Assembly (NCBI GenBank): GCA_020725385.1
Contig: DYFC01000062.1
Span: 1 to 58,394 of the forward strand
Source of the DNA: Nitrospira japonica
GTDB lineage: Bacteria; Nitrospirota; Thermodesulfovibrionia; Thermodesulfovibrionales; SM23-35
Reading direction: 5' to 3'
DNA: 58,394 nucleotides
Shown in pieces: positions 3,790-30,060 of the stretch. Position 1 is the first letter of the stretch; every line of letters starts with the position of its first letter. The notes beneath the pieces are model-generated. The model was given only the letters and a program-made list of their open reading frames with translations. It made no database searches and was not told where the DNA came from. The translations under genes were made by a program, and so were the position numbers.

Positions 3790-4659
3790 CTACTTAAACC
3801 TATATTCTCCAATGATCCCTTGCGGTCTCTTAAGCATTAATACAATCAGTAGAAGACCATATATCATCTGCCTGAGAGGTGCTGCAATAGAGCTCGGCAT
3901 ACCGAGAAAGCGCAACATTTCCGGGAAGATAACAAGAACCAGTGCACCGATAAAAGAACCCTTGATGCTACCCATACCGCCGAAAACGACCATGAGAAGG
4001 ACTGCTATCGATTCCATAACTGTAAAGCTGGAAGGATCAATAAATGTTATATAATGCGCATATAGGCTTCCTGCAATGCCGGCAAAGAAGGCGCCAATCA
4101 CAAAGACAACAAGCTTATATTTATTGACGTTTGTTCCGATGGAAAGACTTGCAATCTCATCATCCCGGATACTCCTGAGAATCCTTCCAAAAGGAGAATG
4201 CGCAATACGATTGATAGCAACTCCTGTCAAACCAACAAAAAATATTACAAGGATGAGATATGCCCAGACTGGTTGAAGCTCGAAACCGAGAAAACTAAAT
4301 TTAGGGATGCCGGGTAACCCCATCGGCCCTCTTGTGAGATCAACCCAGTTCTTTGATACCGAATAGACAATGACACCGAAACCAAAAGTAGCGAGAGCCA
4401 GATAATCCCCTTTGAGTCTGATTGAAGGGAACCCAACAACAACGCCAAGCAAAGAGGCAAAACAGGCGCCGATTACAAGACCTATCCAGGGTGATATTCC
4501 ATAATTAAGAGCAAGAAGGCTTGAGGTATATGCACCAACACATGCAAAAGCGATATGCCCAAGAGCAGGAATACCCGTGTACCCGAGGATAAGATTAAGG
4601 CTAAGTGTCAAAATGATATATATGCCCGAAATAATCAATATGTGTAAGAGATATTCCAT
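3790..4659 (-). CDS. livM: Branched-chain amino acid-type ABC permease
   Basis: LNLILGYTG..LGH.AF, RLKGDYLALATFGF, LTRGPMG, FGGMGS motifs. Confidence 0.9.
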   Translation of the reverse strand: MEYLLHILIISGIYIILTLSLNLILGYTGIPALGHIAFACVGAYTSSLLALNYGISPWIGLVIGACFASLLGVVVGFPSIRLKGDYLALATFGFGVIVYSVSKNWVDLTRGPMGLPGIPKFSFLGFELQPVWAYLILVIFFVGLTGVAINRIAHSPFGRILRSIRDDEIASLSIGTNVNKYKLVVFVIGAFFAGIAGSLYAHYITFIDPSSFTVMESIAVLLMVVFGGMGSIKGSFIGALVLVIFPEMLRFLGMPSSIAAPLRQMIYGLLLIVLMLKRPQGIIGEYRFK

Positions 4660-5536
4660 TACAGTTTTTCCCTATCTTCTCTCTTGCCTAATATTCCTTG
4701 TGGTCTTATCAAAAGAAATACAATAAGAACAGCGAAGGCTATTGTGTCTTTCCATCCGGCTTGAATCTTCCATATTCCAATATTTTCTACAAGGCCAAGA
4801 AAAAGCCCTCCTAATACTGCTCCAGGAATGCTTCCGGCACCTCCAATAATTGAGGCAATAATACCTTTGAGTATTGCATTCATGCCCATTGTTGGCTCTA
4901 TGTTCGTTTCAAGAGAAATTAGAACGCCTGCCATTCCTGCAAGGGCAGAGCCGATACCGAAGGCATAAAGGATGACCTTTTCGGAATAGATACCTGACAC
5001 ACCCGCCCCTATAGGGTCATCTGCTACCGCCCTTATCGCCTTTCCAATCTTCGTCTTATCTACAATAAGCCAGAGTACTGCGAAAAGAATTATTGAAACA
5101 GAAAGAATAAGTATTTGTATCGGTGTAATCACTGCTGAAAATATCTGATAACCTTCCACCACTGGGCCGGTTCTTAGAGATAATATCTGTGCACCATAGA
5201 GAAGTTGGAGGAGGTTTTGAATGAAAATAAACACCCCGAAAGAAGCAATCAGGAAGACAAGATTAGGAGACTTTTGTTTTCTCAGGGGCAAGTATACGAT
5301 TCTATCGATGGTTATGCCGAGGAAAGCTGAAAGGATCGAGGCAAAAAAAAAGAGAGGACAGCATTTAGGCCTAATGATATAGAGAGACTATAGGCAAAAT
5401 AAGCCCCTGCTGTATAGACAACGCCGTGAGCGAAATGAAAAAAGCGGACTGTCTTATAAATTATTGAAAAACCAAGAGCAAGCAAGGCGTAAATGCTGCC
5501 TGAAATAATACCGTTTACAAGAAGTTGTTCAGACAT
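4659..5536 (-). pseudogene. livH: LivH-type ABC permease split by a frameshift at a T9 tract (5343-5351)
   Basis: The N-part (NGIISGSIYALLALGFSIIY...HFAHG) and C-part (GKAIRAVADD, GGAGSIPGA) are in different frames. One extra T gives a continuous ...LSFFFASILSAFLGITIDRIVYLPLRK. Confidence 0.8.
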
Positions 5537-6158
5537 CTATTTCCCCTTCTATCCGTTTATGTATTCCTACTTTACCGATACGTTTTCCTATAGACCAATA
5601 TTCGTTTCCACAAAGGGTTAAAGGGTTCACTTTATTAACACAGATTTGCTTACCGTTTTTAACCTTACCATTAACATGGCTCGCTAATACTTTACCAATT
5701 ATAAAATCATGACTTCCAGCTTCAATTATCAAGGTTACTTTGCACTCGTAATTAACAGGACAGTTTTTAATTAAAGGAGCTTTTACATACTTGCCTCTTT
5801 TCACCGTCAACTTGCAGTCTTTAAACTTATTTCTTTTTTCCCCCGAAATGAGTCCACAGTAGTCAACAATGTGAATCATTTCTTTGGTCGGTATATTGAT
5901 AACAAACTCGCCACTTTTGGAGATCATTTGATGGCTTAGGCGAGTCTTCCTAAGACCGATACCAATTTGATAGGGTTTAGAAGAAACAACGCCGATCCAA
6001 GAGACAGTGCAGACATTAACATGATTCTCCTTGTCTGATGAGGATATCATCACTACAGGCAAAGGGAAAAGGCAAGTAGATGGAATTGACAACGCTCCGT
6101 TTTGCACAACAATCCTGTTTTTTCTTAATCCTTCTTTATTAGGTTCAATTCTTCTCAT
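5529..6158 (-). CDS. Flavin reductase family protein (DIM6/NTAB-like)
   Basis: P.PVVMISS, GEFVINIP, APLIKNCPVNYECKV, GSHDFIIGKV. Confidence 0.85.
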   Translation of the reverse strand: MRRIEPNKEGLRKNRIVVQNGALSIPSTCLFPLPVVMISSSDKENHVNVCTVSWIGVVSSKPYQIGIGLRKTRLSHQMISKSGEFVINIPTKEMIHIVDYCGLISGEKRNKFKDCKLTVKRGKYVKAPLIKNCPVNYECKVTLIIEAGSHDFIIGKVLASHVNGKVKNGKQICVNKVNPLTLCGNEYWSIGKRIGKVGIHKRIEGEIDV

Positions 6159-7954
6159 CTCCCCAGAAATAAATTCAAATTCTTTTCATTTAACAATTCA
6201 TGGCACTTAAACATTAAAGGTATATCTTTATCATTCACTTTATGTTTCTCATTAGTCAGACCCCAAAGCGTTTTTAAACATTCATTTATAAAGTTAATAC
6301 CTCTTTCTTCTCTTGTAACATAGGCTTTTACAATTTTGTTATCTGGGTTTTCTGTGAAATAAAATGCGATAGCATTGGAAAATTTATTTTCCCGATAAAA
6401 AAGAGCTATATTCCCTAACATTATATTATTTTCAAGGTCCTTTGAGTTACTTTCTCGTCCTACTAATTGTGCGGACATTGCTTTAAAATATATGTCATTA
6501 ATCCATTTCTGATAAGTAATATATATAGGGAATTGGAATTTTATCATTTCGGATAGAAATTCTTTAAACTCTTCTTGACATACTTTATATTTTTGGAGTT
6601 TTTTATACTCCTTATCAGTCAATATAATAACTCTCTCAACACATCCTTTCTTACACTGATGTTTTTCCATATGTGCGTTGAGTATCTGTTTGCAAGAAGA
6701 ATCCTGTGTCCATACCATATAGTTCCCATGATGAACCGCTTTGAACATGTCTGAATCAGGTTTAAATATTTTAAAAATGCTATCATAAAAGAAGGAAAAC
6801 ATGTGATCTGGCATAATACTTGTCTTTTTCTTGTCAGCTATTAAATCTTTTGTTGATTGATAAACTAGGTCTAACGCATTAATTCTATATCTGAAAAGCA
6901 TGTTTTTCACCAAAATATTATCACACGAAAGTCTACTTTGGGGGAGTTCAAAAACATGAATCGTCCCTTTAGAGTCTTTTATATTCCCGCATATAGGTAA
7001 ATAAAATACATAGCAACTTTCAGTCATGGGCAAAATATGATCCTCAGCAGTGATCTCAAATGTAATTATCTCGACCTCTGAACAATTATCTGCATCATCT
7101 GAAATGGAAATATTTATAAGATGAAATCGAGGTGTTCCATCCCCATCTGCGGATATCCGCCCAGCACCTACAGTATAAAGAGGCCAATCATCAGATTTTA
7201 ACGTCCTTGCTACAGCAATATGTTGTGTCTCATGTCCATCCCCATGAAGTATCATGCCAACGCCGGCTGCAGATAAGCAATCAAACAAATCATCAGAGTT
7301 TTTAATAACCTTGGCCTTATTAGACTTTGCTGTAGCAGGACGGACGTTAAGAGGGGGATTATGTGTTAATGCGATGTTTAGGCTTAGACGTTTTCTTAAA
7401 TCCGTGCTCATATTCTTAATTCTTTCAATTACCTTCTTATCTACAGAAATGAGTTTTTGCTTTTTACGGAAATATCTGACAGAATTTAAAAGAAATAAAC
7501 TAATTGAAACATTATCCTTTATTAATTCATAAACACCGTCAGTTTTAATGTCGTCTGTTGAGTCAACAAAGCTTTTGAAGTTTTCATTATTCCAATCTAA
7601 TTTATTACTTATTGGACTATTTTTTCTGAATTTATTTACAAAAGAGAAAAAGGCTTTAAATCTCTCTTGAATATGTTCTTTGTCCCACTTAACATCATGA
7701 TTCCCTGGGACAAATAAAAAATTTATTGAGTTCAATTCTAAGGTGTTTGCAAACTTTACCAAAGGCTTTTTCAATTGGTTTATATTTACGGAGTTGCCAG
7801 CTTTAATCAAGTCACCTGTAATAAGAACAATGTCTGGGTTCATTGTAAAACTTTTTAAGGCTAATGCAATGTTTTGAAGTCTTTTATTAATACGTGAGTT
7901 TATATCCTTGAAATGGAGATCTGATAGATGGAGCAGACTTAATTTACTTTTCAT
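6155..7954 (-). CDS. Calcineurin-like metallophosphoesterase fused to an unknown C-terminal domain
   Basis: LHLSDLH, LITGDL, VPGNHD, LTHNP and LHGDGH motifs in the first ~300 aa. I do not recognise the C-terminal ~280 aa. Confidence 0.8.
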   Translation of the reverse strand: MKSKLSLLHLSDLHFKDINSRINKRLQNIALALKSFTMNPDIVLITGDLIKAGNSVNINQLKKPLVKFANTLELNSINFLFVPGNHDVKWDKEHIQERFKAFFSFVNKFRKNSPISNKLDWNNENFKSFVDSTDDIKTDGVYELIKDNVSISLFLLNSVRYFRKKQKLISVDKKVIERIKNMSTDLRKRLSLNIALTHNPPLNVRPATAKSNKAKVIKNSDDLFDCLSAAGVGMILHGDGHETQHIAVARTLKSDDWPLYTVGAGRISADGDGTPRFHLINISISDDADNCSEVEIITFEITAEDHILPMTESCYVFYLPICGNIKDSKGTIHVFELPQSRLSCDNILVKNMLFRYRINALDLVYQSTKDLIADKKKTSIMPDHMFSFFYDSIFKIFKPDSDMFKAVHHGNYMVWTQDSSCKQILNAHMEKHQCKKGCVERVIILTDKEYKKLQKYKVCQEEFKEFLSEMIKFQFPIYITYQKWINDIYFKAMSAQLVGRESNSKDLENNIMLGNIALFYRENKFSNAIAFYFTENPDNKIVKAYVTREERGINFINECLKTLWGLTNEKHKVNDKDIPLMFKCHELLNEKNLNLFLGR

Positions 7955-7967
7955 TTCTCATGACCCA

Positions 7968-9446
7968 TCAAAACATATTTTCAATAGTTTCCAAATCAAC
8001 CCCTATGTCAATCTCGTCCCCATTATTAAAATCTTCTAATAATTGTGCTGATAATTCTAAACCTTTTTGCAAAGTGTCGTGTAAGTTTAATGGGGAGAGT
8101 TCATTTGTACGCACGACTGGCTTCAAAGCATAGTGATACAAGCTATAATCATGATGCAAAATTTCGATCCCAAATTGTTGCGGATTATCATAAATGATAG
8201 TTCCTGGATATGGTATATATTGTTTATATTCCCACGTATCAACTAACCCCTTCTCAGCCCAATCAAGCATTGTTCTTTGAGTTGATTCTGAGGTTTCTCT
8301 GGTCTCTCCAGGTAACCCCAACATCCAATAGGCATGAGTATATAATCCAAGAGCTTTAGCAATTTTAAAGCAGTTTTTTGCACTCTCAATAGTAATGTTT
8401 TTGTTAACCCGATCAAGTATTGATTGCACAGCGGATTCAACGCCAAACTCTATTCCTATACAACCATTCTTAATAATAATTTCAAGAAGGCTATTTTTAA
8501 TCTGTGGTTTAGCACGACATTGTGCAGTCCATAAAATATCTGGATGAGTACTATGAATTATCTGAGCAATTTCTATAGCACGGTTTTCATTACAGAGAAA
8601 GTCTTCACATCCAAGATAAAGATATCGAGTTCCGTACTTAGAGTAAAGGATATCAACCTCTTCTGCAATTCTATCTAAAGTCACATATGAAATAACTTTT
8701 TTCCAAGGATCAGCACAAAAATAGCAACTATTTGGGCAGCCTCTGTTAGGAAATATTCTTGCAGCGGGTAAATGTTTAATTCTTGCAATATCATAAGATG
8801 GGATGGGAAAATCCACTGTCGTTGTCCTTTTTCTTTCATTCCCATGAATAAATTTCCCATTTAATCTAGCAGCTATACCTTGGATATTATCGATAGGTTT
8901 TTTCTTATCTAGAAATTGAGCAATTTCAAGAACAGTTTTCTCACCTTCACCTACTCCAATAAAATCAAAAGGCTTAAAATGATCAGTAAATGAGAAATTA
9001 TTACAGCTATAACTTTTTAAATATCCATTTGCATGGGGTCCGCCCAATCCAATAATGAGTTCTGGCTTTTTCTGTTTAAGTTCAGTAGCAATAAATTTCG
9101 CAATGTGATAATTACAAGTAATGGAATACATACAAACCATGTCTATTTTATGGAGATCAGAGCTTATCTTATTTAAAATTGTAGAAACACTATCCGAAAC
9201 TGGTTGGTAAGGGTTATTTCCAAAGGCATAATATGAGACTTCAAATCCATGCATTCTCAAATAACTTGCAATATAAAGGAGTCCCTGGTTAATCTTTTCT
9301 ATTTCCCAAAAATGTTTAAAATCTTCGGTTGTAAGGTGTTGGAAATAAGTTCGGGCACATCTTTGAAAAAATGCATTTGAATATCGTCTTTCGGCATCGG
9401 ATAGAGGAAACTTTGGAACTGGAACATATACGAGTGCTATTTTCAT
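7968..9446 (-). CDS. B12-binding radical SAM protein (class B methyltransferase-like)
   Basis: GLLYIASYL, GGPHA and GEGE in the cobalamin domain; RGCPNSCYFC (CxxxCxxC); GVESA, GLPGET, PYPGT. Confidence 0.9.
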   Translation of the reverse strand: MKIALVYVPVPKFPLSDAERRYSNAFFQRCARTYFQHLTTEDFKHFWEIEKINQGLLYIASYLRMHGFEVSYYAFGNNPYQPVSDSVSTILNKISSDLHKIDMVCMYSITCNYHIAKFIATELKQKKPELIIGLGGPHANGYLKSYSCNNFSFTDHFKPFDFIGVGEGEKTVLEIAQFLDKKKPIDNIQGIAARLNGKFIHGNERKRTTTVDFPIPSYDIARIKHLPAARIFPNRGCPNSCYFCADPWKKVISYVTLDRIAEEVDILYSKYGTRYLYLGCEDFLCNENRAIEIAQIIHSTHPDILWTAQCRAKPQIKNSLLEIIIKNGCIGIEFGVESAVQSILDRVNKNITIESAKNCFKIAKALGLYTHAYWMLGLPGETRETSESTQRTMLDWAEKGLVDTWEYKQYIPYPGTIIYDNPQQFGIEILHHDYSLYHYALKPVVRTNELSPLNLHDTLQKGLELSAQLLEDFNNGDEIDIGVDLETIENMF

Positions 9447-9456
9447 ATCAGTTTTT

Positions 9457-10647
9457 TTAAAAATCGGTAAATTTATTATTCTTTACAGTCATAATCCTCA
9501 TAGGTTTAATTACATCCCCACCCTTTACAAAGGTGATGTTGCCAGTAACTCCAGGAAAATCCTTCACATTATTTAAGGTATTTTTGATACTGTTAATCTC
9601 AGTGCCACCTTTATTCATAGCAGTTATTAAAACATTGGTGGCATCATATGCATGAGCTGCATAAATTCCTGCTTCACTGCCAAATCTATTTTCATAGGTT
9701 TTAACAAACTTTTGTATCTTTGGATCTGTGCTATTTCTATCAAAATACGGCTGCACAAAGACTACTCCCTCTGCTGCTTTTCCTGCAATTTGTAAAATCT
9801 CAGGTTCATGGAAAGTACCACAACTTATAAACTGAGATTTGATATTTAGCTCTTTTGCTTGAACTAAAATTTTAGAAAATTCTTTAGCATATCCTGATAA
9901 ATAAATGCCATCAGGAGATTGTTTTTTTATTTTAGTTAGCTGAGACCTGAAATCTGAATCTCCTTCATTGTAAGTTTCTATAATTACGATTTCTCCACCA
10001 AGCTTTTTTATAGAATCTACAAAGACATCCTTTAAACCAATTGCATATTCATTATTGCCATATAAAACAGCAAGTTTTTTCAATTTTAATCTTTGAATCG
10101 CTACTTCAGCTGCAACGTCTCCTTCAGCAACATCAGAAGGCCATACACGGAAAAAATATTCACTAGAATTTGAAAGTTTAGGACTTGAAGCAGTAGGCGA
10201 CATAAGGATAACTTTATTTTTATCAATAATTGGAACCATTGCTAATGTTGGTGAACTAAAAGCATCTCCAATTACTATCTGAACTTTATCTTGTGTTATT
10301 AATTTTTGCAAAGCTGAAACTGCTGTAGCAGGTTCTCCTTTAGAATCTTCAAAAATCACTTTAAACTGTTTGCTTTTTACCCCACCTGAATCATTATTTT
10401 CTGCAACTGCCAACTCAATGCCTTCTTTTTCTTTGACTCCATATAATGCCCCATCTCCTGTCAAAGGTAATATTGCTCCTATCTTAATCTCTTTTTCCTC
10501 TTTCTTCACACATCCAAAAGGAAAAACCATCAATGAAGCCAAAAGGATTGAAATTATTGTGAAGGCTAAGGAACTTGATTTCGCATCAAGTGCGGAATGA
10601 CATTTTTTATCGCTGGATTTTGGTCTATACATGACCCTTTCCTCCAT
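9457..10647 (-). CDS. LivK/LivJ-type ABC substrate-binding lipoprotein
   Basis: Lipobox-like FPFGC, IKIGAILPLTG, YFFRVWPSD, AYDA, FPGVTGNITF. Exact start uncertain. Confidence 0.85.
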   Translation of the reverse strand: MEERVMYRPKSSDKKCHSALDAKSSSLAFTIISILLASLMVFPFGCVKKEEKEIKIGAILPLTGDGALYGVKEKEGIELAVAENNDSGGVKSKQFKVIFEDSKGEPATAVSALQKLITQDKVQIVIGDAFSSPTLAMVPIIDKNKVILMSPTASSPKLSNSSEYFFRVWPSDVAEGDVAAEVAIQRLKLKKLAVLYGNNEYAIGLKDVFVDSIKKLGGEIVIIETYNEGDSDFRSQLTKIKKQSPDGIYLSGYAKEFSKILVQAKELNIKSQFISCGTFHEPEILQIAGKAAEGVVFVQPYFDRNSTDPKIQKFVKTYENRFGSEAGIYAAHAYDATNVLITAMNKGGTEINSIKNTLNNVKDFPGVTGNITFVKGGDVIKPMRIMTVKNNKFTDF

Positions 10648-10689
10648 TTATGAGTTCATTGTTAATGAGTTTTGAGTTGAGCAGTAATC

Positions 10690-10899
10690 CTATCTGATCC
10701 CATAATAATATTCTTCTTCAGCATAATAATATGGTTCTCTCTGTTCTTTTATACGGGAATAAGCAAGGTGTCTTTCATCAATTCTTGCATATTTCCCGTC
10801 CTTTGTTCTCTTAAGAAAAGTGATTAACGCTCTTTCTTCTTTCTCTCTCTTTTTAAACTTATTTGAAATCATAGAGTCCTTTAAACAATAATTTCGCAT
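10690..10899 (-). CDS. Small hypothetical protein or gene fragment
   Basis: 69 aa ORF only, no recognised motif. Confidence 0.3.
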   Translation of the reverse strand: MRNYCLKDSMISNKFKKREKEERALITFLKRTKDGKYARIDERHLAYSRIKEQREPYYYAEEEYYYGIR

Positions 10900-11159
10900 T
10901 CAGATACTAACTTAAGTAATTCATCTTCAAGATCTTTTCCACTCAGTCTTTTTTTAATATATTCGTTTAATAAACTCATAGAGAATTTTTTATTTTATAA
11001 AATTGCAAAAATTATATATATTTTCAATTAGTTTTGCAAGTAGAAAATCAAATACGGGCATTTGTGAAGTTAATTTTAGAGAATTTGTCTTAAATCTTAA
11101 CCCTGGCATTTTAAAGACCCGAACCTATGGAATTTATCTTAGACTTTGAGGAGGCATCG

Positions 11160-11471
11160 TTATGCCCGCTTTCTCGTTTTCTGATTCTGTGTGATATCCA
11201 GTATAGCTTCAGGATGTACGGCGGCAATCCTCAATAAAATGCGAGCCGGTCCTTGAGGTTTGCGCCGTCCCTGTTCCCAGTTGCGGAGAGTAGCAACACT
11301 TATTCCAATAAGAGAGGCAAATTTATCCTGTGAAAGACCATACTGTTTTCGTATTTTCTGTACTTCAGATTCTGGAAACTCAACTCTGCGCAAAGGTTTC
11401 ATTTTGCCCTTCATTATGGCCGCACCCTGCTTAATGCTTTCAAGTAACTCTTCAAACAGTTCCTTTTTCAT
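11160..11471 (-). CDS. higA: HigA-type HTH (XRE) antitoxin
   Basis: LSQDKFASLIGISVATLRNWEQGRRKP HTH, downstream of the toxin with a 4-bp overlap. Confidence 0.85.
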   Translation of the reverse strand: MKKELFEELLESIKQGAAIMKGKMKPLRRVEFPESEVQKIRKQYGLSQDKFASLIGISVATLRNWEQGRRKPQGPARILLRIAAVHPEAILDITQNQKTRKRA

Positions 11472-11785
11472 TTATACTCCTTTTCAATAATCTTTTTTAG
11501 TTGTCTTAGTTGGTCTGTTGTCAAATCATCCCGCGCACTCTTTGGATAGGCATAGAGGAGAAGAATAATTTCAAGAGACACAAACCAGTAATAAATAACT
11601 CTGATGCCACCTTTTTTTCCGTGCCCACCAGCAGACCACCGGAGCTTTCTTAGCCCGCCGCTACCGGCTATTATTTTACCGACATCCGGTCTATTGACCA
11701 AATGGGTCTGCAAAAGCCGATATTCATCATCGGTTATTAATTCCTGGATTCGTTTTGTGAATATCGGGGTCTCGATAATAACCAT
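11468..11785 (-). CDS. higB: RelE/HigB-family toxin
   Basis: IETPIF, GSGGLRKLRW, GKKGGIRVIYY, YPKS..DDL; toxin-first gene order. Confidence 0.85.
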   Translation of the reverse strand: MVIIETPIFTKRIQELITDDEYRLLQTHLVNRPDVGKIIAGSGGLRKLRWSAGGHGKKGGIRVIYYWFVSLEIILLLYAYPKSARDDLTTDQLRQLKKIIEKEYK

Positions 11786-24868: not shown

Positions 24869-26122
24869 TTAACTGACTTTGATTTTCTCAATATTTAAAA
24901 TACTAAATCTTAATCTGAGTAGAAGCAATAGTCCGGGTATAGAGAAAAGGAATGTGATAAAGAAAAACCCGGGCCAGCCTACTGACTCTACAAGAAAACC
25001 GGATGATGGTGCTATAAATATTCTTCCGAGTGCTGCAAGTGATGACAATAATGCATACTGGGTTGCTGTAAAACGATGATTACACATTCCCATAATTAGA
25101 GATACAAAAGCTGCTGTCCCCATTCCTCCACTAAAGTTTTCAAAAGCTATTGTAAAAATAAGCATGCTATAACTTTTTCCGAGCCATGCAAGAAGCATAA
25201 AAGACAGATTTGAGACAGCCTGTAAGATTCCGAAAAAAAGAAGTGCTCTGTACAAACCAAGATTAATCATCAATGTACCGCCAATAGTAGCTCCAATTAT
25301 TAAAGATAGGAAACCAAGACCTTTGTTAATAGTGCCTACTTCAGCGGGAGTAAAACCAAGACCCCTTATAAGAAACGGTGTAGTAAGTGTACCTGCAAAA
25401 GCATCTCCTAATTTATATAGAATAATTAAAAGAAGTAAAGCAATCGCTGATTCTCTTGTAAAATAATCTTTAAGTGGCCCCCAAACAGCTTCTTTAATAC
25501 TGGATGGAGGTAATACTTTCCCATCAGGTTCTTTTGCGAATAATGTTGTTAATACTCCTGCAAACATTATTACAGCCATAAAAAGATAAGTATTTCTCCA
25601 TCCTATGCTATCTGACATTATCAGAGCCAGTGCTCCGGATACAAGTGTTGCAATTCTATATCCCGTCACAAAAACCGCTGCACCTACTCCTCTTTCTTTT
25701 TCATGCAACACATCAGTACGATATGCATCTATAACTATATCCTGTGATGCTGAAGTAAATGCTATAAATATTGCAAGAAAGCCAACAGTCATAATAGCAT
25801 CTGAAGGTGAAGTAAAAGAAAGCAGAGTAATGCCAAGAATAAGAAGCATTTGTGTTATTAGTATCCAGCCCCTTCTTCTTCCAAAAAATGGGGGAACAAA
25901 TCTGTCCAGAAAAGGAGACCACAAAAACTTTAATGTATATGGCAGGCCTACAAGAGCAAATATACCGATTGTTTTTAAATCTATTCCTTCAACAGTCATC
26001 CAAGCCTGCAAGGTTCCGCCGCTTAATGCAAGTGGAAGACCTGACGCAAAACCCATCAGTGAAACAATCGCAATTCTTCTGCTTTTGAATACCTGAAGAT
26101 AAGGTTCAAAATATTTTTTCAT
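24869..26122 (-). CDS. ampG: AmpG muropeptide MFS permease
   Basis: GFASGLPLAL, LKFLWSP.LDR, GRRRGW, SASQDIVIDAYR, TATQYALLSS. Confidence 0.92.
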   Translation of the reverse strand: MKKYFEPYLQVFKSRRIAIVSLMGFASGLPLALSGGTLQAWMTVEGIDLKTIGIFALVGLPYTLKFLWSPFLDRFVPPFFGRRRGWILITQMLLILGITLLSFTSPSDAIMTVGFLAIFIAFTSASQDIVIDAYRTDVLHEKERGVGAAVFVTGYRIATLVSGALALIMSDSIGWRNTYLFMAVIMFAGVLTTLFAKEPDGKVLPPSSIKEAVWGPLKDYFTRESAIALLLLIILYKLGDAFAGTLTTPFLIRGLGFTPAEVGTINKGLGFLSLIIGATIGGTLMINLGLYRALLFFGILQAVSNLSFMLLAWLGKSYSMLIFTIAFENFSGGMGTAAFVSLIMGMCNHRFTATQYALLSSLAALGRIFIAPSSGFLVESVGWPGFFFITFLFSIPGLLLLLRLRFSILNIEKIKVS

Positions 26123-26518: not shown

Positions 26519-27367
26519 ATGTTAAGGAAAAGTTTTATTAATCTACTGGCAGTATCATTTTTATCAACTTTGCTTTTATTTGCAACATCAGAAGCAAAAG
26601 ATATTAAAGGTGCTAAAGCAATTTTTGACTCCGGTGAAGGACCTTCTGTTGGAATGTCAGTAGGACATGCAAAAACAAAGACTTCCACAACTGCAACCGA
26701 ATCAAAGGAAAAATATACTGGTATTTCGTATCAGCTTCTTCTCCTTTCCGATGATGGCCAATTTAAAGTAGTTCCAAAAACAAGAGCTTTTAAATCCGGT
26801 GAAAGAATGAAAATGCTTATAAGAACCAATAGATCAGGGTATATGACAATATATAACATTGGTTCATCTGGCAAAACCAATCTTTTATTCAATGATTATG
26901 TCGAAGCATTTACATTGCATGAAATACCCAAGAACACAAATTTTGTATTCACAGGAGCACCTGGTACAGAAACAATTCTTGTGATGCTTTCTGATCAACG
27001 ATATCCAGCAGGAAATCAAACAATAACTGCTTCACCTCCTCCTTCATACAATCCTCCTTCTTATACACCTCCTTCATCAACATCAACAGCAAGCAACACC
27101 GAGCTTCCCCCGCCACCTTCTATTGTTGCTTCTCTGGATGGTGCAAAAAGTTTGAAAAATAAAGGAGCGAAAGATATAGTAGTTGAAGATTCAATGCAAA
27201 ATACTTATGCTGTTATTTCTCCAAAAAATGGTTGGAAACCGGTACCGGGAGGAACAAAAGATATAGTGCTTGAGTCTTCAGCAGGTTCAAATTATGGAGT
27301 GATACCTGCCTCAACTATAGCTGATGGAGGAATTCTCACACTACAAATAAAGTTAAAACATAATTAG
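26519..27367 (+). CDS. Exported DUF4384-like protein with Pro/Ser linker
   Basis: Signal peptide and GGAGGG RBS; FKSGE.....RTNRSGY.TIYNIGSSG...LLF...F.FTGAPGTE pattern. Confidence 0.7.
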   Translation: MLRKSFINLLAVSFLSTLLLFATSEAKDIKGAKAIFDSGEGPSVGMSVGHAKTKTSTTATESKEKYTGISYQLLLLSDDGQFKVVPKTRAFKSGERMKMLIRTNRSGYMTIYNIGSSGKTNLLFNDYVEAFTLHEIPKNTNFVFTGAPGTETILVMLSDQRYPAGNQTITASPPPSYNPPSYTPPSSTSTASNTELPPPPSIVASLDGAKSLKNKGAKDIVVEDSMQNTYAVISPKNGWKPVPGGTKDIVLESSAGSNYGVIPASTIADGGILTLQIKLKHN

Positions 27368-27380
27368 AAAGGAAAAGCAC

Positions 27381-28118
27381 ATGAAAAATAAATTTTTCAA
27401 ACATACAATTATTTTTCTTATAACTGTTTTTCTTTTTACTTCATGTGCTCCACTTCCTCCTGCCGGTACAGCTCTTACACCAGAAGAACGTGAATCAGCA
27501 AAGAAGACCTGTATTGCAAGATATACTGCTGCCGGAGCTGTAGGCGGAGCAATACTCGGAAGTCTTCTTGGTGGTAAAGGCGCTAAATGGGAAACAGCAG
27601 CTATCGGCGCTGCTGCAGGCGGTGCTCTTGCATTTGCTATTGCATGGGGTCATTGTCTTTCTGTATATTCTGACCTTAATAGTTATCCTGTTGCCGGAGC
27701 AAGAGAAACAGCACAAAAAATAGGTTATAACTCTTCACAGGGAAATATTACAAAAATAGATAAATTTTATCTTAATCCTGATGCAGTCGCTCCGGGTGGC
27801 AGGGTTCAGATGAATGGTTCATATTTTATAATGGCACCCGAAGGAACACAGGAAGTAAAAGTAACAGAAACAAGAATTCTTCATTACTATAATCCGTCTG
27901 AAAATGAATGGAAAGAACTCGGTTCTGTTGATAATGTAATTACATCTTCGCTGGGAACAAGAAAAGCAGAAGGTAATTTTGATATACCATCTGATGTTCC
28001 TGAAGGAAAATATCGCATAACTCTTAAAATTGCTGCGCAGGGTAAAGAAGATCAGGTCTCAAAAGAGCTTACTGTTAAAAAAGGATTAGCCATGCTTAAA
28101 TACATGTGGGCAAGTTAG
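27381..28118 (+). CDS. Glycine-zipper lipoprotein with C-terminal Ig-like domain
   Basis: Lipobox FTSC; GAVGGAILGSLLGG...GAAAGGALA; PSDVPEGKYRITL. Confidence 0.7.
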   Translation: MKNKFFKHTIIFLITVFLFTSCAPLPPAGTALTPEERESAKKTCIARYTAAGAVGGAILGSLLGGKGAKWETAAIGAAAGGALAFAIAWGHCLSVYSDLNSYPVAGARETAQKIGYNSSQGNITKIDKFYLNPDAVAPGGRVQMNGSYFIMAPEGTQEVKVTETRILHYYNPSENEWKELGSVDNVITSSLGTRKAEGNFDIPSDVPEGKYRITLKIAAQGKEDQVSKELTVKKGLAMLKYMWAS

Positions 28119-28138
28119 ATATAATCTTGGAGCGGAAT

Positions 28139-29398
28139 ATGATTAAACTTAAATTTATTTTATTTCTATTAATAATCGCTTTCTCGATTTTCCCTCTTGC
28201 ACAAGTTTATCCACAACAATCTCCTGTTACGAATCAACATATTGAACAGATAAATAATCTGTTTCAGAAAAACAATGTTTTTCGTGGTTATGCTGTATTG
28301 GACAGGTTTGGAAGAATAGAACTCAAAGGCGAGTATGAAGACGAAGATGAAGTTGACAGAGCTTTTTCAATAGCACAGACAGTTGTTGGAATTAAATGGG
28401 TATCTCCTGTAACACCCGAAAATATTAAAGTTAAAACATGGGAAAAAAGATTTGGAGACTTATTTTCACGTGCAAAAGTCCTAAAACCAGAAATAAAAGG
28501 TTCTGGTATTCCCGGACCAATTAAAAACAGATATGCTCTGGTTGTAGGTATCGGAGAATTCAAAGCAGAATCTCAGGGTATACCCCGCTTGAATTTTGCA
28601 GTTCATGATGCGAGGAGTTTTTACAATTTTCTTATTGACCCGAAACGCGGGGGATTTCTAAAACAAAACGTAACCTTTCTTACCAACAGGGATGCTACAA
28701 GAGATAATATTGCCAATGCTCTAAATAGAATCAGAGATATAGCAGAGCAGGATGACCTTGTTACTATTTATATGAGCAGTCATGGAACACCACCTGACAA
28801 GTTCGGGGGTGTTTTCATAGTTACTTATGATACCGAGGTTAAACCACGTGAAAAAGTCTGGAAAACAGCTATCTCAGAAAATATGTTGAGGGATTTTATA
28901 GAAAACTTAAGAGCTAAAAGATTGGTAATGATTCTTGATGCATGTTACAGTAATGGCGCTTACAGGAAAGTACCCGGGTTTTTACCGCCTGGCGGAAAAT
29001 CTCTTGGTGCAAGTGATAATGAAGGCTATGGAATTTCCAAGGAATATGCAAAAAGGCTGCTCGGATCTAAAGATATTGTCTTTGAAGATGAACCGCATCA
29101 GAAATCATCAGCCAAATCTTCTTTTGATTCAGATGACGGCTGGGGTAATGTATTAATAGGTGCAAGCGGGCCCGGTGAACAATCATGGGAATCTGATCAA
29201 CTTAATAACAGTATTTTTACATACTATTTTCTTGATGGTTTAAACCGTTATAATGGCTCGGTACAAAAAGCCTTTTATCACGCAAAGCCATTAGTTCCAA
29301 AAAGAGTTAAACAAGAAAAGGGCGAAGATATTGATCAGAATCCACAGGTTATTGCAACCTCTCCCAACTGGGATATGAAATTAGCAAAGAAAAAATAA
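28139..29398 (+). CDS. Exported caspase-family (C14) protease with N-terminal BON-like domain
   Basis: Signal peptide; RYALVVGI, SSHG (His), LDACYS (Cys), SWES...NSIFTYYFLDGL, QNP. ATG at 28139 follows GGAG. Confidence 0.85.
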   Translation: MIKLKFILFLLIIAFSIFPLAQVYPQQSPVTNQHIEQINNLFQKNNVFRGYAVLDRFGRIELKGEYEDEDEVDRAFSIAQTVVGIKWVSPVTPENIKVKTWEKRFGDLFSRAKVLKPEIKGSGIPGPIKNRYALVVGIGEFKAESQGIPRLNFAVHDARSFYNFLIDPKRGGFLKQNVTFLTNRDATRDNIANALNRIRDIAEQDDLVTIYMSSHGTPPDKFGGVFIVTYDTEVKPREKVWKTAISENMLRDFIENLRAKRLVMILDACYSNGAYRKVPGFLPPGGKSLGASDNEGYGISKEYAKRLLGSKDIVFEDEPHQKSSAKSSFDSDDGWGNVLIGASGPGEQSWESDQLNNSIFTYYFLDGLNRYNGSVQKAFYHAKPLVPKRVKQEKGEDIDQNPQVIATSPNWDMKLAKKK

Positions 29399-29421
29399 TA
29401 TTTTTAAAGGAGGATTTTGAG

Positions 29422-30060
29422 ATGCTCGGAAAAAGTAATTTTGTTTTAGTACTAATCTCTGTATTATTTATTGGATTAATAATTGCAGGTTGTCAGCAGC
29501 AAAAACAGGCAGAAGCTCCAAAACCAGCAGAACCTGTTGCAGCACCTCAAACGCAAACTGTAACAGAACCAGCACCACAGGCAACAACCCAGCCACCAGC
29601 GCAAATTGGCAAAGGAAGCACAGATCCAACTTCACAGGCAGCAGTGCCTACAGAAGCAAAACTTAGTCTTCAACAGGGGATGAATTATTTAAGGTCTCAT
29701 GATTACGATAATGCTATTAAAGAATTTACAGTCGCCATCCAGAAATATCCAAGTTACGATGTAGCATATTCTAACAGAGCGGTTGCTTATATGCAGCAGA
29801 ATAAATTTAATAAAGCTCTTGATGATTTGAAAAAAGCTGAAGAGATTAATCCAAATAATCCAACAGTACATTATAATTTTGTTGCACTTTATTCATTACA
29901 AAAACAGCTTGATAGAGCACTTGATTCACTCGACAGGGCTCTTGAACTCGGGTTTAATAACTATGATGCTCTTAGAACTGATACAGATCTGAATAATGTC
30001 CGTAAACATCCTGAATTCAAAAAAATACTCGAAAAACACAAGGTATTCATTATGAAATAG
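29422..30060 (+). CDS. TPR-repeat lipoprotein
   Basis: Lipobox IAGC, Pro/Gln/Thr linker, 3-4 TPRs, C-terminal RTDTDLNNVR cap. Confidence 0.85.
   Translation: MLGKSNFVLVLISVLFIGLIIAGCQQQKQAEAPKPAEPVAAPQTQTVTEPAPQATTQPPAQIGKGSTDPTSQAAVPTEAKLSLQQGMNYLRSHDYDNAIKEFTVAIQKYPSYDVAYSNRAVAYMQQNKFNKALDDLKKAEEINPNNPTVHYNFVALYSLQKQLDRALDSLDRALELGFNNYDALRTDTDLNNVRKHPEFKKILEKHKVFIMK

Follow-up and report, generated by a model that had tools for sequence, protein, structure and literature searches.

The stretch of DNA analyzed here (the window; 58,394 nucleotides of contig DYFC01000062.1, Nitrospira japonica assembly GCA_020725385.1) contains, between positions 26519 and 30060, four closely spaced open reading frames (ORFs) on the + strand, with intergenic gaps of 13, 20, and 23 nucleotides. 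These four genes, A, B, C, and D, encode a secreted DUF4384 protein, a lipoprotein with a glycine zipper and a C-terminal immunoglobulin-like (Ig-like) domain, a secreted caspase-fold protease, and a TPR lipoprotein, respectively (Table 1). Their conservation supports treating them as one exported cassette, and two lysine-centered motifs, G-x-K-[SA]-[IL] (type 1) and G-x-K-D-[IL]-V-x-[ED] (type 2), which are shared by the protease C and its neighbor A, are the subject of this analysis. According to tblastn, A, B, and C were each present once in the host genome (71 contigs, 2.46 Mb, 96.6% complete), and D gave generic TPR matches only; tblastn was substituted for a PF00656 profile search of the same genome, which returned no match despite the caspase in the window (63 bits) and was taken as a search miss. 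Among the matches listed, the nearest relatives of this genome were Nitrospirota/Thermodesulfovibrionales bins.

Table 1. Genes, domains, and motif copies of the cassette, in window coordinates
Feature	Coordinates	Strand	Basis or conservation
Gene A, secreted DUF4384 protein, 282 aa	26519-27367	+	Signal peptide by eye, Pfam
Gene B, lipoprotein with glycine zipper and C-terminal Ig-like domain	27381-28118	+	Lipobox LFTSC, Pfam
Gene C, secreted caspase-fold protease	28139-29398 (ATG, 419 aa); alternative GTG at 28106 adds 11 aa	+	
Gene D, TPR lipoprotein	29422-30060	+	Lipobox IIAGC, TPR families
DUF4384 domain of A	26789-26998	+	Pfam and genome search
GAKAIF, type 1, near mature N-terminus of A	26609-26626	+	G31 121/121, A32 120/121, K33 121/121
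GAKSL, type 1, internal and optional in A	27140-27154	+	Lys 80/121, column gapped 41/121; homolog form GAKS[IL]
GAKDIVVED, type 2, first copy in A	27164-27190	+	G216, K218, D219, D224 each 121/121
GTKDIVLES, type 2, second copy in A	27251-27277	+	G245, K247, D248 each 121/121
SSHGT in C, catalytic His215 and pocket Ser213 (419-aa)	28775-28789	+	S213, H215 invariant; aligned to AtMC4 SGHGT
DACYS in C, pocket Asp267 and catalytic Cys269	28937-28951	+	D267, C269 invariant; D[TA]CYS aligned to AtMC4 DSCHS
GGKSLG, type 1, C linker, 18 residues past catalytic Cys	28991-29008	+	G296, G297, K298, S299 (430-aa) 121/121
GSKDIVFED, type 2, C linker, 42 residues past catalytic Cys	29063-29089	+	G320, K322, D323 (430-aa) 121/121
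End of C linker, variable, low-complexity, poorly modeled	29090-29134	+	Variable columns 329-343; pLDDT <50 at residues 319-330

GGAG-type ribosome-binding sites lie upstream of A, C, and D, that of C being 8 nucleotides from the ATG at 28139. This ATG is the most likely start of C, since the nearest homolog (the best one listed) has 419 residues and homologs cover about 97% of the reading that begins with GTG. Two numberings of C are therefore given, that of the 419-residue reading and that of the 430-residue reading, with K298 and K322 of the latter corresponding to K287 and K311 of the former. Export signals were judged by eye throughout. Signal peptides of the n/h/c type were seen in A and C and lipoboxes in B and D, and the claim of the earlier note on this DNA that all four genes encode one or the other was thus borne out. 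A Cys after a hydrophobic stretch recurred in the sampled homologs of B and D, with a strict lipobox pattern in 45 of 71 and 39 of 68 sequences, respectively; several of the displayed sequences that missed the strict pattern showed looser forms, such as LYSC, TVSC, and MGC. C has no Cys besides the catalytic one, D none besides that of the lipobox, and A none at all, a sparsity that would suit periplasmic proteins.

A scan of one genome per species found 82 relatives of C in 77 distinct loci. The four genes were adjacent and colinear in 57 of the 62 loci with enough flanking sequence (the exceptions being L053, L060, L061, L063, and L066), in agreement with the earlier description of an exported caspase operon. 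The intact loci came from Thermodesulfobacteriota (19 loci), Pseudomonadota (16 loci), Nitrospirota (13 loci), Myxococcota (1 locus), and records without a phylum (8 loci), and the cassette was also present in Methylomirabilota and Rokubacteria records, in the cultured Syntrophus buswellii DM-2 (L075), and in a metagenome-assembled genome of Thermodesulfovibrio yellowstonii (L010). Clustering of the ORFs of the 77 loci gave just four widespread families, found in 76, 71, 70, and 69 loci; the next clusters (33, 26, and 22 loci) were judged, from one example each, to be opposite-strand ORFs inside the cassette and were not accepted as further members. Six neighboring genes of the window recurred in only 1 or 2 of the 77 loci and thus lie outside the cassette. 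The phyla were intermixed on the caspase tree, with 11 label changes against a minimum of 5, which fits horizontal spread of a self-contained four-gene unit. Exactly one protease gene is present in the cassette, so the protease cascade that had been proposed is not supported. Overall, the interpretation in the earlier note is supported in part, its release of defined peptides and its scaffold or effector roles for the two lipoproteins being proposals. No published description of the cassette or of the shared motif was found in the literature searched, most subscription journals being outside its coverage.

The two lipoproteins differ in their distribution. D, which matched TPR_2 (57.9 bits) and the TPR end-of-group domain (TPR_END_plus; 82.3 bits, cutoff 32), was found in 69 of the 77 loci and occurs in both of the cassette types distinguished below, termed Lys type and Arg type. 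B matched the glycine zipper 2TM family (PF05433) barely above the cutoff (24.5 bits against 24.2; residues 48 to 85), with weak Ig-like matches in its C-terminal part. It was found in 70 of the 77 loci and had no match in 10 Arg-type loci; because of this absence, B is not regarded as a core part.

C can be assigned to peptidase family C14, with a predicted caspase fold, because it matched Peptidase_C14 (PF00656) well above the cutoff (63.4 bits against 21.4; residues 142 to 417 of the 430-residue reading), its His/Cys dyad is invariant, and its model has the fold. Behind the signal peptide, the protein has a small alpha/beta domain and then p20-like and p10-like parts, which are separated by a linker of about 65 residues. 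The model had a predicted local distance difference test score (pLDDT) of 84 and a predicted template modeling score of 0.81. Foldseek matched the model to MALT1, metacaspases 4 and 9, Yca1, and the Geobacter protein GSU0716 (E-values of 6e-11 to 1e-9), and the best sequence match among solved structures was metacaspase-4 (AtMC4; E-value, 1e-8). H215 and C269, invariant in 68 sequences, aligned with H86 and C139 of AtMC4. The p20 part of an acidic S1 pocket is also present, with S213 and D267 corresponding to S84 and D137 of AtMC4 and with D157, in A-V-R-D-A, aligned with the helix 1 Asp of G-C-V-N-D; all three residues are invariant. The segment S349-W-E351 is likewise invariant and fits the S-x-acid pattern of S350/D352 in AtMC4, an alignment made among bacterial caspases only; a sequence search of the PDB with the p10 part alone returned no metacaspase and nothing relevant. 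According to the available portions of the papers cited here and below, Ser84, Asp137, Ser350, and Asp352 of AtMC4 hold Lys225 of the linker in the S1 pocket, and several basic residues of this linker serve as cleavage sites when the enzyme is activated (PMC7206013); the pocket of TbMCA2 consists of Cys92, Asp95, Ser156, and Asp211 (PMC4357240).

Both motif copies of C lie in the p20-p10 linker, past the catalytic DAC as the earlier note had described (Table 1), and both precede a p10-like strand. Classification of C as a type II metacaspase was ruled out by the length of this linker (about 65 residues, from C269 to about G336), the signal peptide, and an extra N-terminal domain of about 75 residues; by analogy, C would work like that group without belonging to it. 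The N-terminal domain (window positions 28214 to 28504; residues 26 to 122) consists of a helix, two strands, and a helix in the model. Its sole match, to BON (PF04972), had an E-value of 0.18 and 12.6 bits against a cutoff of 27, and the domain is BON-like at most. A weak secondary match of C to Peptidase_C13 (E-value, 0.003) was below the cutoff. Among the PADLOC models, only a generic caspase (E-value, 6e-13) and TPR were matched, and A and B matched none.

In A, the signal peptide is followed by a beta-sandwich, which a disordered, Pro-rich linker connects to a motif-bearing C-terminal module of about 80 residues. Its match to DUF4384 (PF14326) covered residues 91 to 160 (42.4 bits, cutoff 27; in the genome search, 45.1 bits and an E-value of 2.3e-11), and its model had a pLDDT of 72, with residues 30 to 61 and 168 to 194 disordered. 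Searches with the fold returned generic Ig-like or macroglobulin-type sandwiches only (best Foldseek E-value, 7e-3; best VIA Z score, 7.7, with a root-mean-square deviation of 2.9 and 101 aligned residues), from which no function can be drawn. The C-terminal module (80 profile positions) had only 53 representatives among 1.84 billion representative proteins; all 53 proteins were of 407 residues or fewer, the module was C-terminal in nearly all full-length matches, and no fused form was found among them, which argues that the module belongs to the A family alone. At its extreme C-terminus (27350 to 27364), A ends in L-x-H-x, with L279 and H281 invariant in the Lys-type family. The Arg-type counterpart A' ends likewise (L282 in at least 90% and H284 invariant, in an alignment of 11 sequences). 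TPR domains often bind C-terminal tails, and by analogy the tail of A could be a handle for D.

The six motif copies were found where the earlier note had placed them (Table 1). In a scan of all six-frame ORFs of at least 80 residues (1,047,098 residues from the 2.46-Mb genome), the pattern G.KDI[VIL] had 10 matches, 3 of them in this locus (about 0.01 expected, by our own arithmetic), the pattern G.[KR]D[IL][VIL].[ED] had 5 matches, 3 in this locus, and the type 1 pattern G[AGS]K[SA][IL][FG] had 3 matches, 2 in this locus. The motif is present in the locus beyond chance. The two extra type 2 matches and the one extra type 1 match, examined by eye, belong to a membrane sensor-like protein and to two proteins that lack a signal peptide, and no other candidate substrate in the genome was evident among them.

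At an E-value of ≤0.001, 338 relatives of A and 559 of C were collected, and the alignments contained the query and the best 120 of each (n = 121). Conservation of the motif across homologous caspase/DUF4384 pairs, which had been named beforehand as a test of the proposal, was found at all five principal sites, the Lys being present in 121 of 121 sequences at A33, A218, A247, C298, and C322 (430-residue numbering of C), and the motifs were still present in operons in which A was only about 30% identical. The first string that the earlier note had listed in A, from position 26591, held only in part: its GAKAIF portion, at 26609, belongs to a conserved N-terminal element, GAKA[IL]FDSGEG (from G31), and its EAKDIK portion is poorly kept, with K27 in 22 of 121 sequences and Pro at position 29 in 104 of 121. 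Comparison of the A and C profiles with hhalign aligned residues 206 to 228 of A with residues 301 to 321 of C (419-residue numbering) over 21 columns, with an E-value of 1e-4 and a probability of 56%. The motifs lie in flexible, less confidently modeled parts of both proteins, with block-mean pLDDT values of 46 to 65 at the A sites (46 for the 10-residue block that holds GAKAIF) and 60 to 80 at the C sites; past the second C motif, values drop below 50 for a stretch.

Enzyme and partner co-varied at one motif position. The second residue past the Lys is I or L and has the same state in all three type 2 motifs. In paired A and C proteins taken from the loci (64 pairs and the window), positions A220 and C313 (419-residue numbering) were L/L in 18 cases, I/I in 45, and discordant in 1 (phi, 0.96), and positions A249 and C313 were L/L in 17 cases and I/I in 41, with no discordant case (phi, 1.0). 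For 18 control pairs of I/L columns between A and C, phi was ≤0.42, so the link is not accounted for by base composition or by a general drift between I and L. The result is independent of one row from a genome flagged as unpublished (L065), and the I/L state changed about five times on the caspase tree, which was built without the motif columns. Outside the motif columns, the best trackers of the I/L state among the columns of A to D were residues 196 to 207 of B (AEGNFDIPSDVP; window positions 27966 to 28001), in a loop of the Ig-like domain, where P207 is replaced by A, Q, or D in three of the five L-state lineages; this association is uncorrected for phylogeny.

Arg replaces Lys sporadically within the Lys-type family (GSRDIVVE in L063/P0258 and GVRDIIVE in P0266) and at every site in a distant subfamily among the 53 module matches. 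In 11 representatives of this subfamily, chosen by eye, the motif takes the form Q-x-A-R-[AS]-L-F at the N-terminal site and the forms T-R-S-L-V-V-D-D and T-R-S-L-V-V-E-V at the C-terminal ones; R221 and R250 (P0270 numbering) were invariant in all 11 sequences, and R28 was present in at least 90%. A metagenome scan yielded 10 Arg-type loci, all with Arg at every site present. A' matched DUF4384 with 28.4 bits (cutoff 27), the TPR lipoprotein D' followed A' in 7 of the 10 loci, and a caspase gene adjoined in 4 (L078, L080, L082, and L087). This gene encodes a different, compact Peptidase_C14 protein, with Pfam E-values of about 1e-30 in the two that were scanned (L078 and L080) and with an N-terminal region containing a coiled coil in L080, L082, and L087. 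The first Arg of its post-Cys loop, SGR[ANS]IGG(T)RGL, aligned in MAFFT with the Lys of GGKSLG, and the four pocket positions defined on AtMC4 were A/D/A/D in the Arg type, where the Lys type has S/D/S/E. Comparison of the two cassette types gave identities of 38% for D and 25% for A, and the caspases were barely alignable (BLASTP E-values of 0.015 to 0.06); D being kept while the caspases diverge, the motif change accompanies the protease rather than the TPR protein. A check of K versus R co-variation, suggested in the earlier note, thus came out partly as expected, with Arg at the A' sites beside an Arg-loop caspase, but it rests on one contrast and includes one mixed case, in the Pseudomonadota genome G353.

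That genome was one of two matches to the Arg-type A profile in 401 sampled Pseudomonadota genomes, the other being the already known G001. Its locus (L091; G353:C1:3964000-3980000, positions 3945 to 11784) encodes a D-like TPR protein, a 1,050-residue protein, an A-like protein, and a protein that is OmpA-C-like by eye, and it also holds a divergently oriented gene for a 666-residue compact caspase with Arg in its loop. Two further observations concern the Arg-type loci. A' has a Cys eight residues upstream of each C-terminal Arg motif (C242 invariant and C213 in at least 90%, P0270 numbering), and a disulfide enclosing the first motif would be possible there, in contrast to the Cys-free Lys-type A. 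A signal-peptide protein of about 160 residues, encoded after the TPR gene in three loci (L080, 5135 to 5680; L081, 1803 to 2327; and L084, 1466 to 2002), may be a further member of the Arg-type cassette.

The reading favored here, with a probability of roughly 60%, is that the motifs address the active site of the caspase, in cis in the linker of C and in trans in A, which would be a dedicated substrate or pseudosubstrate, and that they do so in a mobile envelope cassette. Its basis is conservation, synteny, the export signals read by eye, the co-variation of enzyme and partner, and the residues of the catalytic dyad and the p20 pocket; from these we infer binding at the active site, cleavage, latency, anchoring at the outer membrane through B and D, and a trigger. 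The core of the cassette would be the exported metacaspase-like cysteine protease C, the secreted A, and the outer-membrane TPR lipoprotein D, with B added in the Lys subtype. The two motif types would be recognition elements, the Lys of which enters the acidic S1 pocket. In cis, the linker motifs would most likely hold the enzyme latent and be cut upon activation, as is Lys225 in the AtMC4 linker. In trans, the motifs lie beside the mature N-terminus of A and beside its C-terminal strands, so placed that A would be a dedicated substrate or a competing pseudosubstrate. If A were cut after K218 and K247, conserved stretches of 29 and 35 residues from its C-terminal part would come away from the DUF4384 beta-sandwich, to which they seem to contribute strands in the model, because the fold alignments span residues 66 to 282 of A (a range given by the first and last aligned residues only). 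The motifs could equally be a pseudosubstrate or a docking element. A complex prediction for mature C with mature A scored 0.00, which counts neither for nor against binding.

Three precedents fit this reading: MaOC1 self-processes after Arg219 (PMC7475262) and cleaves an antitoxin encoded by its neighbor (PMC7935541), a C-terminal DUF4384 domain is present in some of the Csx30 proteins that the TPR-CHAT protease Csx29 has as substrates (10.1101/2022.08.17.504292), and orthocaspases recurrently have DUF4384 as an accessory domain (PMC6426788, PMC7475262).

Several observations weigh against recognition by the active site. The residues adjacent to the motifs (IVxE and YxVI) are conserved far beyond the need of a bare cleavage site. 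The N-terminal A-[KR]-[AS] before [IL]F in A also fits the A-x-A rule of signal peptidase I, as read by eye, and lies only 3 to 7 residues from the likely mature N-terminus; this copy may double as a signal peptidase site. The co-variation rests on few independent events: three independent pairs on well-supported branches changed in the same direction (sign test, p = 0.25), and three pairs cannot reach significance. The split between Lys type and Arg type is a single evolutionary contrast, and the G353 case mixes the two, its A-like protein carrying Lys motifs (GAKALF and AGKDLVFEE) and its divergently oriented compact caspase, 1.1 kb away, having the loop SSRSI and the pocket A/D/T/D. Finally, the p10 pocket positions were aligned among these bacterial caspases only and not to a solved metacaspase.

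A tentative extension, which we consider doubtful, would see in the cassette a periplasmic equivalent of the plant metacaspase/PROPEP or bacterial caspase/gasdermin systems. A latent caspase docked at the outer membrane would be activated by envelope damage or a different envelope cue, cut its own linker, and release the 29- and 35-residue segments of A; these segments, or else the opened beta-sandwich, would serve as a signal or membrane effector, the Lys or Arg specificity of each enzyme having co-evolved with a private substrate.

Somewhat more doubtful still is the explanation that the motifs are docking strands, in which K-D-[IL]-V-x-E adds as a beta-strand to a noncatalytic reader and tethers A and C to the outer-membrane lipoproteins, the candidate readers being B (by its Ig-like domain), D (by its TPR groove), and C (by its small N-terminal domain). 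In its favor, a strand is modeled at IVLES of the second A motif and a short bridge at IV in the C motif, the conservation of motif-flanking residues goes beyond what a cleavage site needs, and the L-x-H-x terminus is invariant in both cassette types. Against it, B is absent from the 10 Arg-type loci that still carry the motifs, and the tracking of the I/L state by its residues 196 to 207, the best after the motif columns themselves, is uncorrected for phylogeny and, despite the altered P207 in three lineages, fails in two of the five. D remains 38% identical while the motif turns from Lys to Arg and from Asp to Ser and loses its Gly, a change that tracks the caspase type. With its strictly basic residue and its place in the p20/p10 linker, the motif also looks like a metacaspase-type site.

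Some clan CD enzymes are transpeptidases, among them legumain-type ligases, GPI transamidase, and PorU. It is nevertheless very improbable that the caspase attacks the Lys-Asp bond to join fragments of A to an envelope component, or that the Lys side chain is a cross-link acceptor: although the subthreshold Peptidase_C13 match, the placement of all parts in the envelope beside lipoproteins, and the unusually strong conservation past the Lys (D-I-V-x-E) would suit such chemistry, the replacement of Lys by Arg in a whole subfamily, and sporadically in the Lys type, disfavors use of the Lys amine, and no cassette protein resembles an acceptor-handling enzyme. Equally improbable is a structural or compositional coincidence kept separately in each protein, with the N-terminal copy of A being a signal peptidase site, since the A-x-A fit of that copy and the shortness of the hhalign match between A and C are outweighed by the enrichment of the motif in the locus, the invariant Lys at five sites, the I/L switches coordinated over three sites in two proteins against the control columns, and the coordinated change from Lys to Arg at all A' sites along with a different caspase.

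Upstream of the cassette and divergent from it, a − strand gene (24869 to 26122) encodes a 417-residue multipass membrane protein that resembles an AmpG-type permease by eye; it recurred in 2 of the 77 loci and is thus outside the cassette. An Rfam scan of the locus gave nothing useful, and a promoter and terminator scan was uninformative (16 promoter-like sites against 13.9 expected and 5 terminator-like sites against 3.4 expected).

The substrates of bacterial caspase homologs are almost unknown, those named in the available text of our sources being an antitoxin for MaOC1 and Csx30 for Csx29. Gasdermins are further substrates. In the present cassette, an enzyme and a dedicated partner, each with its exact predicted sites (those of the enzyme for self-processing), can be nominated from sequence alone, and the Lys-type and Arg-type cassettes are a natural pair for swap experiments. 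If the favored reading is true, the cassette would be the first envelope-located caspase pathway in bacteria and would give DUF4384, which recurs next to proteases of several kinds, a function; if the periplasmic signaling extension is also true, DUF4384 proteins in general would be protease-gated modules.

Among known systems, C resembles the Arabidopsis type II metacaspase AtMC4 (PDB 6W8S/6W8R) in its dyad, in the Ser and Asp of the p20 pocket, and in the basic sites of the p20/p10 linker. AtMC4 releases a C-terminal peptide from a dedicated substrate, PROPEP1, to which A is the proposed parallel. The two enzymes are about 15 to 17% identical in fold alignments and differ in linker length (about 65 residues in C against about 150). 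C, unlike AtMC4, carries a signal peptide for export and a small domain at its N-terminus, and the Ca2+-dependent activation loop of AtMC4 has no obvious counterpart in C in the sequence alignment. A also repeats the motif of its own enzyme, and no such repeat was seen for PROPEP1 in the available text of our sources. MaOC1 of Microcystis aeruginosa, compared here by its description, is like the proposed C in being a bacterial C14 protease with basic-residue specificity, self-processing, and a substrate encoded by a neighboring gene. It differs in being cytoplasmic and in having an antitoxin as substrate, with no motif shared by enzyme and substrate reported in the available text of PMC7935541; C, unlike MaOC1, has a p10-like part and a predicted envelope location.

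Craspase (Csx29/Csx30 of type III-E CRISPR) likewise combines a caspase-fold protease and TPR with a dedicated substrate encoded by a neighboring gene. It differs from the cassette in that CHAT is absent from the Pfam matches listed for C, in that the TPR of the cassette is a separate lipoprotein, and in that all parts of the cassette are exported. A solved bacterial relative by fold is GSU0716 (PDB 3BIJ; E-value, 1e-10). The compact caspases of the Arg-type cassette ("DACRDNPF ... RGL") share with C the fold, a basic residue in the post-Cys loop, and partners of the A and D families (A' and D'), the RGL being typical of many bacterial caspases. Unlike C, they have neither the long linker nor the type 2 motif, and they have a coiled-coil N-terminal region and the pocket A/D/A/D.

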